This document shows positions 52,378-56,273 of a stretch of DNA of 64,000 nt, one piece after another. The stretch's first letter is position 1, and each line of letters starts with the position of its first letter. The position numbers and the translations under genes were made by a program. A model generated the notes under the pieces. The model worked only from the letters and a program-made list of their open reading frames with translations, was not told the origin of the DNA and made no database searches. The stretch comes from Candidatus Latescibacterota bacterium (lineage in GTDB: Bacteria; Latescibacterota; UBA2968; UBA8231), in the NCBI GenBank assembly GCA_965221775.1, contig CBDCSU010000004.1:128001-192000 (forward strand), given 5' to 3'.

Positions 52378-53136
52378 TTGAGCGAGCTCTCCTTCCGCGC
52401 TCCGGGCGAGGTGATCGACGCCAACGTCGGCGTCGGCCACCGCCACGACCGGCCCGCCCCCATGGAGGACGCCGCCGGCCTGCTGGCGGAGATGGACCGC
52501 CACGGCGTCGACGCCGCCGTGGTCTACCACGTGCAGGGAGAATCGGTGAGCGCCCTCGACGGCAACGACCTGCTCCGAGAGTGGGTGCAGGACCAGCCGC
52601 GGCTGATTCCCCAGTGGGTGGCCGGCTCCGACCCTGCCACCCACCGGCAGCTGGAGGGGCTGCAGGCGGAGGGCCGGCTGCGCAGCGTGCGCCTCCACGA
52701 CACCGCGTCCTGCCGCGCCCCCTTCACCGACTGGATCTACGGCGACCTGCTCGCGTGGCTGGAGGCGGAGGGGATCCCCTTGTGGATCTCCCTGGCGGAC
52801 AACGACATCGAACAGATGGCCGACACCCTCGGGCGGTATCCTGAGCTGGTGAGCGTGCTCGTGGGCGCCCACTACACGCACGCCGCTCTCGTGCGCCCGC
52901 TGATGCGGAAGCTGCCGCGGTCGCTGCTGGAGCTGAGCCGGCACGAGACCCCCGGCGACGTGGAGGCCCTGGCGCGCGACGTGGGGGTGCGGCGGCTGGT
53001 GTACGGATCCTTCTACCCCCGCTACGCCATGGGGCCCATCCTCTACTACCTGCACCGCTGCGACCTCACGGCCCCCCAACTCGACCTGATCTGCGCCGGC
53101 AACGTGGGCCGCCTCCTCGGGGAGGAGGGCGGATGA
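52378..53136 (+). CDS. Amidohydrolase-like protein with degenerate metal motif
   Basis: IDANVGVG in place of IDxHxH, MDRHGVD.AVV, RLVYGSFYP, I..GN..RLL. Confidence 0.7.
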   Translation: MSELSFRAPGEVIDANVGVGHRHDRPAPMEDAAGLLAEMDRHGVDAAVVYHVQGESVSALDGNDLLREWVQDQPRLIPQWVAGSDPATHRQLEGLQAEGRLRSVRLHDTASCRAPFTDWIYGDLLAWLEAEGIPLWISLADNDIEQMADTLGRYPELVSVLVGAHYTHAALVRPLMRKLPRSLLELSRHETPGDVEALARDVGVRRLVYGSFYPRYAMGPILYYLHRCDLTAPQLDLICAGNVGRLLGEEGG

Positions 53137-53879
53137 TCTCCGGCACCCGCGTCATCGACGCCCACGGCCACGTGGGCCACTGGGAGGTCCTCGGCATGCG
53201 CGACGACGCCGGCGAGATCCTGCGGACCATGGACCGCGCCGGTATCGACGTGGCCGTGGTCTTCGGCATCTTCCACCCCGAGGGCCGCAGGTCCAACGAC
53301 GCGGCCGCCGCCTTCGTGGCCGCTCACCCCGACCGCTTCGCCGCCCTGGCCTACGCCTCTCCGCTGATGCCGGACGGCATGGTGTCCGAGTTGCGCCGCG
53401 CCATCGACGACCTCGGCTTTCTGGGGGTGAAGATCTATCCGCCGTACACGCCTTGGCCCCTCGACCACGAGGCCTGGGACCCGATCTACGCCTTCGTCGA
53501 GGAGCGCGGTCTGCCGCTGCTGTCCCACACCGACGCCGGGGACGTCTCCCGGCCGGCCCAGCTGGCGGCGGCAGCCCGGCGCTTCCCCGGGGCCGCCTTC
53601 ATCGCCGGCCACTCCGGCAACATGGAGCCGGCCCGCTCGGAGGCGATCCAGGCCGCCCGGGAGCTGCCCAACTTCTATCTGGAGACCTGCTCCACCTACC
53701 GCACCCCCGGCGTCATCGAGGAACTGGTGGCCGGCGCCGGCGCCGACCGGGTGCTCTTCGGGTCCGACCAGCCGCTGATGGACCCGCGCCCCCAGCTGGG
53801 CAAGATCACCGCCGACCTGAGCGACGAGGAGAAGCGCCTCGTCCTCGGCGGCAACGCCGCACGTCTCCTGGGTCTGTAA
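53133..53879 (+). CDS. Amidohydrolase_2 family protein
   Basis: IDAHGH, GVKIYP, LSHT, GHSG, LFGSDQP. Confidence 0.88.
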   Translation: MISGTRVIDAHGHVGHWEVLGMRDDAGEILRTMDRAGIDVAVVFGIFHPEGRRSNDAAAAFVAAHPDRFAALAYASPLMPDGMVSELRRAIDDLGFLGVKIYPPYTPWPLDHEAWDPIYAFVEERGLPLLSHTDAGDVSRPAQLAAAARRFPGAAFIAGHSGNMEPARSEAIQAARELPNFYLETCSTYRTPGVIEELVAGAGADRVLFGSDQPLMDPRPQLGKITADLSDEEKRLVLGGNAARLLGL

Positions 53880-53882
53880 CCC

Positions 53883-54782
53883 GTGGCCGAGCCCCTGACC
53901 CTGCTCAGCATCGGCGCCCACCCGGCCGACATCTTCGACCAGTCGGGCGGCACCATGGCCCACCACGTGGAGCGCGGCGACCGCGTCGCCTGCGCCGTCC
54001 TCACCCACGGGGCCCGCGTCCACGACGCCGAGATCAGCGACGCCATGTTCCACCGGGAACAGGTGCCGGAGGCCGGGGAGCTGAGCGACCTGATGGCGGA
54101 GCGCGCCGAGGTGAAGGCGGGGGAGGTCCGGCGCGCCTGCGCCTTCCTCGGCGTGGAGGAGATCCACTTCCTCGGCTTCGACGACGCCGTGCTCGAGGCC
54201 ACCGAGGAGATCGTGCGCCGCGTGGCGAGCCTGCTGCGCCAGGTCCGCCCGCACGTCGTCCTGACCCACTTCCCGTACGAGGGCGACGCCGTCAACGCCC
54301 ACGCCGTCACCGGCCGCATCTGCCTGCTGGCCCTCGGGCTGGCCGGCAGCGTCGATCCCGGCGACCGCAACCCGCCGCACAAGACGGCCCAGGTCTTCTT
54401 CTTCGGTACGGGGGCGGCGCCCCTGCCGCGGAATGTGTGGGGCGCCCGGGGCGGTTTCTACAACGACGTCTTCATCGACATCGGCGACGTGGTGGAGAAG
54501 AAGCTGGCCGCCCTCGACGCCCTGGTCAGCCAGGGCTACGGCGGAGCCTACGCCCGCAAGCGCATCGAGACCTCGGACGGCGCCTTCGGCAACGCCGCCC
54601 ACTGCAGCTACGCCGAGGGCTTTATCAAGATGAACGCCGAGTGCCACCACTACCTGCCGGTGACGGACCGGGCCCTCGAGCTGGCGGGGTTGAGCGACCA
54701 TCAGGTGATCCCCCGGGCCTCCCTGCGGCACCGATCGGGTCCCCCCGGGGCCGAGCCCGAAGGCCCGGATCGTACGGCTTGA
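53883..54782 (+). CDS. PIG-L/LmbE family metalloenzyme
   Basis: GAHPAD...GG, LTHG, E.RRA...LG, RP..VLTH, IDI....EKK..A, YAEGF. Confidence 0.8.
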   Translation: MAEPLTLLSIGAHPADIFDQSGGTMAHHVERGDRVACAVLTHGARVHDAEISDAMFHREQVPEAGELSDLMAERAEVKAGEVRRACAFLGVEEIHFLGFDDAVLEATEEIVRRVASLLRQVRPHVVLTHFPYEGDAVNAHAVTGRICLLALGLAGSVDPGDRNPPHKTAQVFFFGTGAAPLPRNVWGARGGFYNDVFIDIGDVVEKKLAALDALVSQGYGGAYARKRIETSDGAFGNAAHCSYAEGFIKMNAECHHYLPVTDRALELAGLSDHQVIPRASLRHRSGPPGAEPEGPDRTA

Positions 54783-54807
54783 CATCGGGCGCGCCCCGGC
54801 GTAAGGT
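54779..54807 (+). promoter_or_regulatory. sigma70-like promoter for the intergenic RNA
   Basis: Perfect TTGACA (54779-54784), 17-bp spacer, TAAGGT (54802-54807). Confidence 0.65.
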
Positions 54808-54812
54808 ACAGA

Positions 54813-54974
54813 CATCCCCACGGCCGGCTCCTCCGGGATCCGGCCAAAACCGGAGCGACGGTAGGCCGCCTCGTACCGGCGTTCCGGAAAAGTCGAGCGG
54901 TCCTCTGCTTTCTCCTACGCTCGACTCTGTTTCTCCATAGACAGGGGGCCCTCGGGCCTCCTGTCTATTTTCTT
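54813..54974 (+). ncRNA. Putative ~160-nt multi-hairpin small RNA
   Basis: Bounded by a promoter and a terminator. Four consecutive stem-loops (54822-54845, 54850-54887, 54891-54926, 54937-54968). No plausible ORF. Confidence 0.65.
54937..54974 (+). terminator. Intrinsic terminator
   Basis: ATAGACAGGGGGCC-CTCG-GGCCTCCTGTCTAT forms a 14-bp stem, followed by TTTCTT. Confidence 0.75.
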
Positions 54975-55010
54975 GCGCCCCTGACGGACTCCTCCTCGAG
55001 CCCCCGGCCC

Positions 55011-56273
55011 ATGCCCCTCGCCCCCGAAGCCGCCGCCGCCCTCGACCGGCGGCTGGCCCTGGTCGACGCCGCCGAGCCCCGGATCCGGGCCCTGGTCCCG
55101 GAGCAGGACCGCCGCCTGCGCCTCGCCGCCGAGTTGGAGGCCGCGCCCGAGGGCCCCCTGCGGCACCTGCTGGTGGGCGTGAAGGACATCTTCCACGCGC
55201 GGGGACTGCTCACCCGGGCAGGTACCGAGTTGCCGGGAGGCCTCTTCGCCGCGGAGGGCGCGGAGGAGGCCGACGCCGACTGCGTCGCCGCCCTGCGGGC
55301 GGCGGGAGCGGTGGTCCTCGGCAAGGCGGTGACCACCGAGTTCGCCTACTTCGAGCCCGGGCCGACGCGCAACCCGCGAGACCCCGCCCACACCCCCGGC
55401 GGTTCCTCCAGCGGCTCGGCGGCGGCGGTGGCGGCCGGGTACTGCGAGCTGGCCCTGGGGTCGCAGACGGTGGGCTCGGTCATGCGGCCGGCCGCGTTCT
55501 GCGGCGTCGTCGGGTTCAAGCCGACCTTCGGGCGCGTCTCCCGGGGCGGTCTGCTGCCCTGCTCCCCCTCGGTGGACACGGTGGGACTATTCGCCCCGGA
55601 TACGGCTACCGCGGCCCGGGGGGCGGCGGTCATCGTCGATGCGTGGGGTCCCGCCGCCGCCGAGGGCCACTGGGAGTCGCCCCGGCCCGTCCTCGGGATC
55701 CCGGAGGGGCCGTACCTGCGCCAGGCCTCGCCCGAGGGACTGGCGGGGTTCGAGGAGCAGGCGGCGAGGCTGGAGTCCGCGGGCTTCCGGGTGAAGCGGC
55801 TGGAGGTCCTGACCGACATCGACGAGGTCAACCAGCGCCACCGCGACCTGCACGCGGCGGAGATGGCCCTCGTGCACGCCCCATGGATGGAGGAGCACCT
55901 CGATTTCTACAAGCCGCTGACCCGCCAGTTCCTGCTGCGCGGCCGGGCGATCCCCGAGGCGCGGCTCCTGGCCGGCAGGGAGGGGCGCGGCCTCCTGCGG
56001 CTCCAGTTGGAGCAGGCCATGGCGGCCGAAGGCGTCGACCTCTGGATCTGTCCGTCGGCGCCGGGACCGGCCCCCCGCGGCCTGCACGCCACGGGGGATC
56101 CCATCATGAACCTGCCCTGGACCCACGCCGGCCAGCCGGCCCTGAGCCTGCCGGCGGGGCTCGTGGGCCGGCTGCCCCTGGGGCTGCAGTGCGTCGCCGC
56201 CCACGGCCGCGACGAGGCCCTCCTGGCATGGGGCGCCGCCCTCGAGGCGGCCCTCGGTTCCGGCGGCGACTGA
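55011..56273 (+). CDS. Amidase signature family protein
   Basis: VGVKD, TPGGSSSGSAAAVAAG, LGSQTVGSV.RPAAFCGV.GFKPT. Confidence 0.92.
   Translation: MPLAPEAAAALDRRLALVDAAEPRIRALVPEQDRRLRLAAELEAAPEGPLRHLLVGVKDIFHARGLLTRAGTELPGGLFAAEGAEEADADCVAALRAAGAVVLGKAVTTEFAYFEPGPTRNPRDPAHTPGGSSSGSAAAVAAGYCELALGSQTVGSVMRPAAFCGVVGFKPTFGRVSRGGLLPCSPSVDTVGLFAPDTATAARGAAVIVDAWGPAAAEGHWESPRPVLGIPEGPYLRQASPEGLAGFEEQAARLESAGFRVKRLEVLTDIDEVNQRHRDLHAAEMALVHAPWMEEHLDFYKPLTRQFLLRGRAIPEARLLAGREGRGLLRLQLEQAMAAEGVDLWICPSAPGPAPRGLHATGDPIMNLPWTHAGQPALSLPAGLVGRLPLGLQCVAAHGRDEALLAWGAALEAALGSGGD

Follow-up and report, generated by a model that had tools for sequence, protein, structure and literature searches.

A candidate gene for a conserved small RNA with exposed C-rich motifs between a PIG-L-family deacetylase gene and an amidase gene of a Candidatus Latescibacterota bacterium

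The DNA analyzed here, referred to as the window, is a stretch of 64,000 nucleotides (nt) from a Candidatus Latescibacterota bacterium (assembly GCA_965221775.1, contig CBDCSU010000004.1, positions 128,001 to 192,000). On its plus strand, positions 54779-54975 between a gene for a PIG-L-family deacetylase and an amidase gene harbor a locus with the features of a gene for a small RNA (sRNA). A preliminary description, made from the letters alone, had proposed a TTGACA-N17-TAAGGT promoter that overlaps the PIG-L stop and is followed by four hairpins, H1-H4. The promoter was found at these positions and is kept in homologues, and RNAfold applied to 54810-54980 reproduced all four hairpins at the positions proposed. 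The locus and its neighbors are composed as follows; compensatory pairs refer to the alignment of homologues treated below.

53883-54782: open reading frame (ORF) for a PIG-L-family deacetylase (Pfam PF02585), the upstream neighbor.
54779..54807 (+): sigma-70-type promoter, with the -35 hexamer TTGACA at 54779-54784, a 17-nt spacer, and the -10 hexamer TAAGGT at 54802-54807.
54814..54821 (+): predicted transcription start A54814, placed by its spacing of 7 nt past the -10 hexamer, and single-stranded 5' tail AUCCCCAC.
54822..54845 (+): hairpin H1 with a C(UCCG)G tetraloop (RNAfold; 5 of 9 pairs compensatory).
54850..54887 (+): hairpin H2 with the apical loop GGCCGCCUCG at 54864-54873 (RNAfold; 3 of 14 pairs compensatory).
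54891..54926 (+): hairpin H3, a perfect 9-bp stem with the 18-nt pyrimidine-rich loop GUCCUCUGCUUUCUCCUA at 54900-54917 (RNAfold; 3 of 7 modelled pairs compensatory).
54927..54936 (+): unpaired linker with the second UUUCUCC at 54930-54936 (centroid fold).
54937..54974 (+): H4, an intrinsic terminator composed of a 14-bp stem with a 4-nt CUCG loop (54937-54968) and a U-rich tail (terminator scan; 5 of 12 pairs compensatory).
55011-56273: amidase gene (PF01425), the downstream neighbor.

The TGA stop codon of the PIG-L ORF is located within the -35 hexamer. According to RNAfold, H2 consists of 8 and 5 pairs that flank a 1x1 internal loop, and one extra pair is predicted inside its apical loop. 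The H3 loop contains CCUC and also UUUCUCC (54909-54915). As the preliminary description had claimed, this copy and the one in the H3-H4 linker were both unpaired, in the minimum-energy as well as in the centroid fold. The H4 stem is followed by UUUCUU, and homologues carry longer U runs at this place. No ORF of at least 20 amino acids begins within the sRNA, and insertions and deletions in the linkers of homologues are not multiples of three.

The minimum free energy of the plus strand was -85.5 kcal/mol, compared to -60.8 +/- 4.3 kcal/mol for 200 dinucleotide shuffles (z = -5.70), and none of the 200 shuffles folded as well. For the minus strand a z value of -2.25 was obtained. The fold exceeds chance. 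An alignment of 13 trimmed sequences with 56-98% pairwise identity (A1) folded into the identical four helices, and 16 of the 42 pairs showed a double-sided change in at least one sequence, with 5, 3, 3, and 5 compensatory pairs in H1, H2, H3, and H4, respectively. Pairing was retained in 98.9% of 538 cells, versus 34-52% when the 3' partners were slid by 1-3 columns. The number of double-sided cells was 54 versus 0-10 in these controls, and the covariation score was 0.393 versus 0.05-0.13. In a larger alignment of 18 sequences (A3), 23 of 36 consensus pairs were compensatory. Conservation and covariation had been named beforehand as a test of the sRNA, which the locus passed in each of the four helices.

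The unpaired parts are conserved to very different extents. The column identity in A1 was 0.99 for the 5' tail and 0.985 for the apical loop of H2, compared to 0.84 for paired columns and 0.81 for the H3 loop, within which the core CUUUCUCC is nearly invariant. The H1 loop, the H4 loop, and the linkers reached 0.46-0.74. In A3, ATCCCCA of the 5' tail and CGCCTC.T of the H2 loop (CGCCUC.U in the RNA) were invariant, and ATCCCCA was unpaired in the folds of all 18 homologues. Every homologue displayed two to six YCYCC motifs with at least four of five bases unpaired. One of them lies in the 5' tail (18 of 18 homologues), others in the H3 loop and the linker, and in eight homologues the terminator loop UCCCCA supplies a further one. 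A linker motif of the YUCUCC type is retained at the same place in most homologues. The emphasis that the preliminary description had put on UUUCUCC was, therefore, right as far as it went, but the 5' AUCCCCA tail and the apical loop of H2 are more constrained.

A generic sigma-70 scan of the locus did not list the TTGACA-N17-TAAGGT promoter, since TAAGGT matches TATAAT at only three of six positions. The case for the promoter rests on its conservation across homologues and not on the generic scan. TTGAC[A/T]-N17-TAnnnT was present 6-7 nt ahead of the A of AUCCCC in all 18 homologues inspected. When the 13 sequences were aligned together with their flanks, the region upstream of -35 and the spacer had diverged completely, while all 13 retained CTTGACA, the spacing of 17 nt, TA[A]nnT, and, 6-7 nt further on, CAUCCCCA. 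Many tRNA genes of the same genome have this TTGAC-N17-TAnnnT type of promoter.

The genome of the window (5.36 Mb in 6 contigs, 96.8% complete) contains one copy of a 202-nt stretch covering the sRNA, and all other BLAST matches were chance matches of 15-32 nt. Relatives also have one copy per genome. This disposes of a dispersed repeat, an origin that the preliminary description had wanted to see tested. BLAST against 60 relatives gave clear matches (E values of 1.7e-93 to 4.3e-12) in all nine other genomes of the genus and in three genomes of two further genera. We built a covariance model from A1 (R1) and another one from A3 (R2), and both were calibrated. The searches used stricter Infernal filters and weak relatives may be missed, so that a genome without a match counts as "not found" and not as "absent". 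R1 detected the sRNA in 18 of 76 genomes of the family and added three genera with 55-70 bits (g17, 3/3 genomes; g12, 1/1; g2, 1/1). Over 132 genomes of the class, R2 detected it in 21, all of them within the family of the window (20 of 75 genomes besides its own; 8 of 18 genera), including a true homologue in genus g15 that R1 had not found (42 bits). No match to R2 was found in 56 genomes of three sister families. The sRNA had been called lineage-specific, and this agrees with the confinement of the matches to one family. Two weak matches of R1 (L056 and L057) were rejected, as they consisted of a tRNA T-arm plus a terminator.

A degenerate pattern was also searched over one genome per prokaryote species. 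It gave 42 loci, of which R2 accepted 13 as true (114-162 bits), all in metagenome-assembled genomes (MAGs). The titles of these 13 records read Candidatus Latescibacterota (7), Gemmatimonadetes or Gemmatimonadaceae (5), and "bacterium" (1). The labels given by the submitters thus disagree, though the carriers fall into one family of the genome collection searched. Among 47 loci that the pattern gave in metagenome contigs, R2 accepted 7. The remaining loci of both searches lay in unrelated taxa and matched by chance.

In distant homologues the promoter, the 5' AUCCCCA, the linker motif, and the terminator are retained, together with the apical loop of H2 (..CGCCUCGU..) and the loop of H3 (UUUCUCCCC). 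One or two additional hairpins are inserted after their 5' tail, and the number of hairpins varies between genera. The loops of the additional hairpins in genera g12 and g2 again read UCCCCA or CCCCC. Genus g13 has an 87-nt unit (L064:1501-1587, L065:1501-1587) with 5' CA(U/C)CCCUACGA, one hairpin, a linker of the CUCUUCCC type, and a terminator. It scored about 31 bits with R2 and may be a reduced relative.

The genes surrounding the sRNA change between homologous loci. PIG-L is located directly upstream in the five closest genomes only; in three others it lies about 1.3 kb upstream. Five further loci have a co-oriented gene for a GNAT-domain protein of about 330 amino acids upstream, at a distance of 240-340 nt. 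In genera g17, g12, g2, and g15 the upstream neighbor is a second small promoter-to-terminator unit and not a protein gene, as seen in five genomes inspected (L051-L055) and in a sixth one (G023) by BLAST. On the downstream side an amidase gene is present in the four closest genomes only. Elsewhere, it is replaced by a gene for a sulfatase, a GFO/IDH/MocA oxidoreductase, a PhyH dioxygenase, or an unknown protein, and in several loci the downstream gene is convergent. The terminator is retained in all homologues. Because the promoter is conserved amid a diverging spacer and flank, and because the downstream gene is variable and frequently convergent, we concluded that the sRNA is free-standing and not the leader of the amidase gene. 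The preliminary description had raised a cis-acting attenuator of the amidase gene as the alternative to be tested, and the presence of the amidase gene in only the four closest relatives answers it. No terminator was found between the PIG-L stop (54782) and the sRNA in the window; transcription of PIG-L should, therefore, continue into the sRNA, which may additionally be present as a 3' extension of the PIG-L mRNA.

The second upstream unit (L051:1700-1850, minus strand; also L052-L055 and L109-L111) is likewise conserved, has a TTGACA-N17-TAGTAT promoter of its own and a length of about 100 nt, and closes with a terminator (GGCCGGCAGGAC...GUCCUGUCGGCC-UUUU). It had no match in Rfam, and by BLAST it was not found in the genus of the window (0 of 9 relatives and the window's own genome). 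We consider it a probable second sRNA, unannotated and in tandem with the first. Further upstream in the window, an Amidohydro_2 gene (53133-53879) precedes PIG-L. In several relatives (L040, L041, L047-L050) the gene for the GNAT-domain protein of about 330 amino acids stands between PIG-L and the sRNA. We presume that this pair of PIG-L and large GNAT genes recalls genes for the synthesis of low-molecular-weight thiols (MshB/MshD-like).

Five metatranscriptomic runs from two studies shared 9-19% of the words sampled from a 601-nt stretch, about a quarter of which is the sRNA. Contigs of four of these runs were placed on 54300-55500. Marine run X1 provided a 167-nt contig that matched over its whole length at 54831-54997 with one differing letter, and marine run X4 a 108-nt contig at 54828-54915 with an adapter at its end. 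A 162-nt contig from a sponge (run X3) matched completely at 54795-54956 with two differing letters. The only contig of run X2 (345 nt) lies within PIG-L (54392-54736), with none on the sRNA. Assembled contigs show neither ends nor strand nor level, and RNA libraries may contain DNA; depth was not used to rank genes, and parts of the stretch that no run covered carry no evidential weight. We take the contigs as a weak sign that the sRNA region is transcribed. Further contigs from RNA libraries were placed on the amidase gene at 55284-55500. They were 28-58-nt pieces of long contigs with several mismatches and represent the conserved amidase signature of other organisms, not the gene of the window.

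Taken together, the locus has its own promoter, an intrinsic terminator, no ORF, a covarying structure, and independence from its context, which are generic features of sRNA genes. We are highly confident that it is an independent gene for a structured RNA.

The preliminary description had recognized no known family in this RNA, and Rfam 15 bore this out: at gathering score, nothing in the 64-kb window matched. At E <= 10, five sub-threshold matches were present in 54600-55150. The best one on the plus strand was the cuckoo RNA ar14 (RF02344), with a covariance-model score of 17.6 bits (E = 0.5) that did not reach the gathering cut-off of 58.8. The only match to a Csr-family model near the locus had 10.7 bits and was on the opposite strand. 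Seven homologous loci gave no match to Rfam at E <= 0.01.

Known sRNAs nevertheless resemble it in design. Small RNAs with C-rich hairpin loops that are thought to contact G-rich ribosome-binding sites include 6C RNA from Actinobacteria. RNAIII of Staphylococcus has UCCC-type C-rich loops to which the same kind of contact is ascribed in passages of PMC4615179. The RNA described here has no Rfam match to these two and differs from them in architecture and taxon. According to passages of PMC6158497, RsaE/RoxS RNAs carry their C-rich motif twice, once in the loop of a hairpin and once in a linker left unpaired, and these motifs pair with G-rich Shine-Dalgarno (SD) regions. Like these RNAs from Firmicutes, the sRNA is small and intrinsically terminated and repeats a C/U-rich motif in a loop and a linker, UUUCUCC occurring twice. 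In contrast to them, it is about 160 nt long with four or more hairpins, carries the motifs AUCCCCA, CGCCUCG, and UUUCUCC, and belongs to another phylum. No homology was detected, and the RsaE model was not among the five Rfam matches at E <= 10. The likeness to RsaE/RoxS is an analogy of design and no evidence of common descent.

Cuckoo RNAs of alphaproteobacteria (ar14 / RSs0680 / SmelA075) consist, as portrayed in parts of PMC4615179, of two to four adjacent hairpins with anti-SD-like pyrimidine loops in varying module number, and each of their hairpin loops carries CCUCCUCCC (PMC4615179). The sRNA likewise shows four adjacent hairpins without multiloops, the last one being the terminator, and a hairpin number that varies between genera. 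However, CCUCCUCCC is absent from its loops, which read UCCG, GGCCGCCUCG, GUCCUCUGCUUUCUCCUA, and CUCG. While cuckoo RNAs are multi-copy with varying neighborhoods, the sRNA is present in single copy, its loops differ from each other, and its host is not an alphaproteobacterium. With the sponges CsrB/RsmZ it shares the display of several copies of a short motif in the loops and linkers of a multi-hairpin RNA, but its motif is rich in C and U instead of being GGA, and the genome yielded no CsrA gene. It also differs from Hfq-dependent sRNAs of the enterobacterial type, as no Hfq was detected in the host genome.

The 5' motif of the sRNA is also found in front of other genes of the family. The pattern TTGAC-N18-TAnnnT-N5-8-ATCCCC was present in 48 of the 76 genomes, while the reversed control pattern gave two matches in all. 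In genus g14, 24 of 31 genomes have two or three conserved loci with the pattern (L122:1501-2855, L123:1501-2663, L135:915-1540). These loci head genes for an EPSP_synthase-family protein (MurA/AroA-like), a Peptidase_S11 carboxypeptidase (PBP5-type), and a GNAT protein. A tRNA-Lys(UUU) gene of genus g17 has the same type of promoter and the leader AUCCCCGCCUCGUUUUCUCUGC (L142 = G025:C1:1916700-1917200, minus strand; L143 = G035:C11:120440-120940). This leader joins the three conserved single-stranded motifs of the sRNA as AUCCCC-GCCUCGU-UUUCUC. The PBP5 orthologue in the genome of the window has the C-rich leader ACUCCCCUCGCCC. AUCCCC as a general start signal of promoters for stable RNAs was rejected for this genome, as 0 of 56 predicted tRNA genes carried the motif downstream of a promoter-like site. 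One upstream window of a tRNA gene did contain ATCCCC, but inside the adjacent tRNA-Cys gene. A g14 genome (G090; contigs C1 and C2) had 14 pattern matches, 13 of which shared one identical 41-nt sequence (TTGACCGTGGTCAAGG...) that resembles the terminus of a mobile element present in several copies.

The 3' end of the 16S rRNA of the host reads ...CACCUCCUUU / ...GGAUCACCUCCUUU and contains the canonical anti-SD. Among 3,372 crude ORF starts, GGAG/GAGG occurred at positions -15 to -8 with 3.5-7.1% per position, compared to about 1.5% elsewhere, and the most enriched pentamers of this interval included AGGAG, GAGGA, GGAGA, AAAGG, and GAAAG. The GGAG/GAGG enrichment indicates that SD-led initiation is in use. 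The 96.8%-complete genome gave no match to the Pfam model of Hfq (PF17209), which detected the protein in 5 of 14 control genomes, and none to the models of CsrA (PF02599) and ProQ, which also gave detections in control genomes. Motifs rich in C within loops are taken as a signature of sRNAs pairing with ribosome-binding sites, as set out in portions of PMC4615179 and PMC6158497.

On balance, we favor a trans-acting, chaperone-independent C-rich sRNA that base-pairs with ribosome-binding regions, and we hold this function with much less confidence than the existence of the gene; the transcript ends and the pairing with mRNAs are inferred. A structured sRNA of about 160 nt would be made from a dedicated sigma-70-type promoter, with its 5' end near A54814 and its 3' end at the terminator near 54974. 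Single-stranded C/U-rich stretches would be exposed at four places: AUCCCCA at the 5' end, GGCCGCCUCG in the loop of H2, CCUC..CUUUCUCC in that of H3, and UUUCUCC between H3 and H4. These seeds could pair in trans with the G-rich SD regions of a set of mRNAs, and the pairing might block initiation and/or trigger decay. No chaperone of the Hfq type would be required, as with RsaE/RoxS, RNAIII, and cuckoo RNAs.

Several observations weigh against this interpretation. Duplex energies calculated for the four unpaired segments against the regions -60..+30 of the 3,372 ORFs were no better than against gene interiors (-10.25 versus -9.95 kcal/mol for the linker and -17.74 versus -17.70 kcal/mol for the H3 loop). 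Of 300 occurrences of GGAGAAA, 15 (5.0%) preceded a candidate start by 3-13 nt, versus 6 of 229 (2.6%) for the reversed motif, an excess of at most two-fold with small numbers. There was no excess near starts for GAGGCGG (1.0% versus 1.3%) or TGGGGAT (1.0% versus 0.9%). A gap-free scan that allowed G:U pairs was dominated by purine-rich coding regions, and the best long complement genome-wide was the antisense strand of the sRNA itself. GGAGAAA or GGGGAT occurs in the SD window of 80 genes, which share no obvious theme, and no outstanding target emerged from any of the scans. All these scans were applied to a single genome with gene starts guessed from ORFs and the G+C content of third codon positions. 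Since the starts were guessed in a genome of 70% G+C, the scans have little power, and they neither support nor refute the pairing. Furthermore, one of the RNA-library contigs starts at 54795, 19 nt before the predicted transcription start, and another one reaches 54997, about 22 nt past the U tract; read-through from PIG-L, leaky termination, or carried-over DNA could each account for these ends. A natural variant of 129 nt that lacks H3 is present within the genus of the window (G009; L019:1448-1576 / L050:1501-1629); it retains the 5' tail, H1, H2, a CACUCCC linker, and the terminator. Finally, AUCCCC, invariant as it is at the 5' end, might function in the DNA as an element close to the promoter or as a shared 5'-end signal instead of an RNA seed. 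Its occurrence in several transcripts weakens the interpretation of the 5' tail as a seed.

Among the alternatives, a protein-binding RNA deserves most attention. CsrB and 6S RNA titrate their protein partners, and the C/U-rich motifs could titrate a KH, S1, or cold-shock-domain protein in the same way, or a factor that recognizes leaders with AUCCCC. We regard such a decoy as possible, at clearly lower probability than pairing with mRNAs. It would be in line with the two to six unpaired YCYCC motifs that each molecule exposes and with the hairpins of the same loop motif that distant genera add. The invariance of the 5' tail and the H2 loop over genera would be easier to reconcile with one fixed partner than with mRNAs that change, but invariant seeds are equally normal for base-pairing sRNAs. 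A decoy would also fit the presence of the same 5' AUCCCC at the head of unrelated transcripts in sister genera, including the tRNA-Lys precursor, and the absence of an mRNA target signal in the scans. On the other hand, no candidate protein emerged, and apart from the GNAT/PIG-L pair, which accompanies the sRNA in part of the family, no gene is consistently adjacent. The motifs differ from GGA, a CsrA gene was not found, and the string of hairpins does not resemble the rod of 6S RNA.

A special form of this idea starts from the AUCCCC leaders. The sRNA could be a trans-acting or decoy member of a lineage-specific system that also comprises the tRNA-Lys precursor and the mRNAs of cell-wall enzymes, namely the EPSP-synthase/MurA-family protein and the PBP5-type carboxypeptidase. 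A factor (protein, RNase, or ribosome) would recognize the C-rich 5' signature, and an abundant sRNA with multiple motifs would compete for it. We consider this scenario unlikely. If true, it would couple the synthesis of stable RNAs to that of the envelope in an uncultured phylum lacking Hfq.

Somewhat less probable still is a housekeeping RNA that belongs to an undescribed class and acts on the machinery of translation or transcription and not on specific genes, e.g., a global mimic of the anti-SD that competes with 16S rRNA. The CCUC/CUCC cores do resemble the anti-SD CCUCC of 16S rRNA, the promoter type shared with many tRNA genes of the same genome suggests high and constitutive expression, and the gene is single-copy and vertically inherited within the family. 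However, a housekeeping function would be unusual for an RNA that was detected in no more than 8 of the family's 18 genera and in none of the 56 genomes from sister families, and H3 is dispensable in one species.

We give slightly less weight again, and thus very little, to a cis element. It would be the structured 3' untranslated region and terminator of PIG-L (or of the GNAT gene), or else serve the amidase gene as 5' leader or attenuator. The missing terminator behind PIG-L, the contigs that begin before the predicted start or extend past the U tract, and the presence of a PIG-L gene or the gene for the large GNAT protein upstream in the same orientation in many homologous loci would agree with it. 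Against it stand the complete promoter kept in all 18 homologues, elsewhere at about 240-340 nt from the upstream gene, and the second small promoter-terminator unit that is the upstream neighbor in four genera. The downstream gene is not conserved and frequently convergent, the 14-bp terminator is strong, and the fold offers no alternative pairing for an anti-terminator. Chance hairpins or a functionless fragment of a repeat or mobile element have a negligible probability: DNA with 70% GC folds readily, and the minus strand also had its z of -2.25, but the single copy, the strand-specific z, the compensatory changes in four helices, and the promoter and terminator kept across genera refute this for practical purposes.

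In our best reading, the sRNA represents a new, conserved, and lineage-restricted RNA family of a known kind, namely a C-rich sRNA of the anti-SD type. Full-text searches of the literature found no regulatory RNA for this uncultured lineage, and only unrelated papers were retrieved. The family comprises 18 or more sequences, is supported by compensatory changes in each of its four helices, and has two calibrated covariance models; it could be used for the annotation of MAGs and for deposition. It extends the recurring chaperone-independent design with exposed C-rich seeds to another branch of the bacteria and is a solid but not surprising addition. If its link to the AUCCCC leaders is real, it would hint at a new layer of post-transcriptional control.

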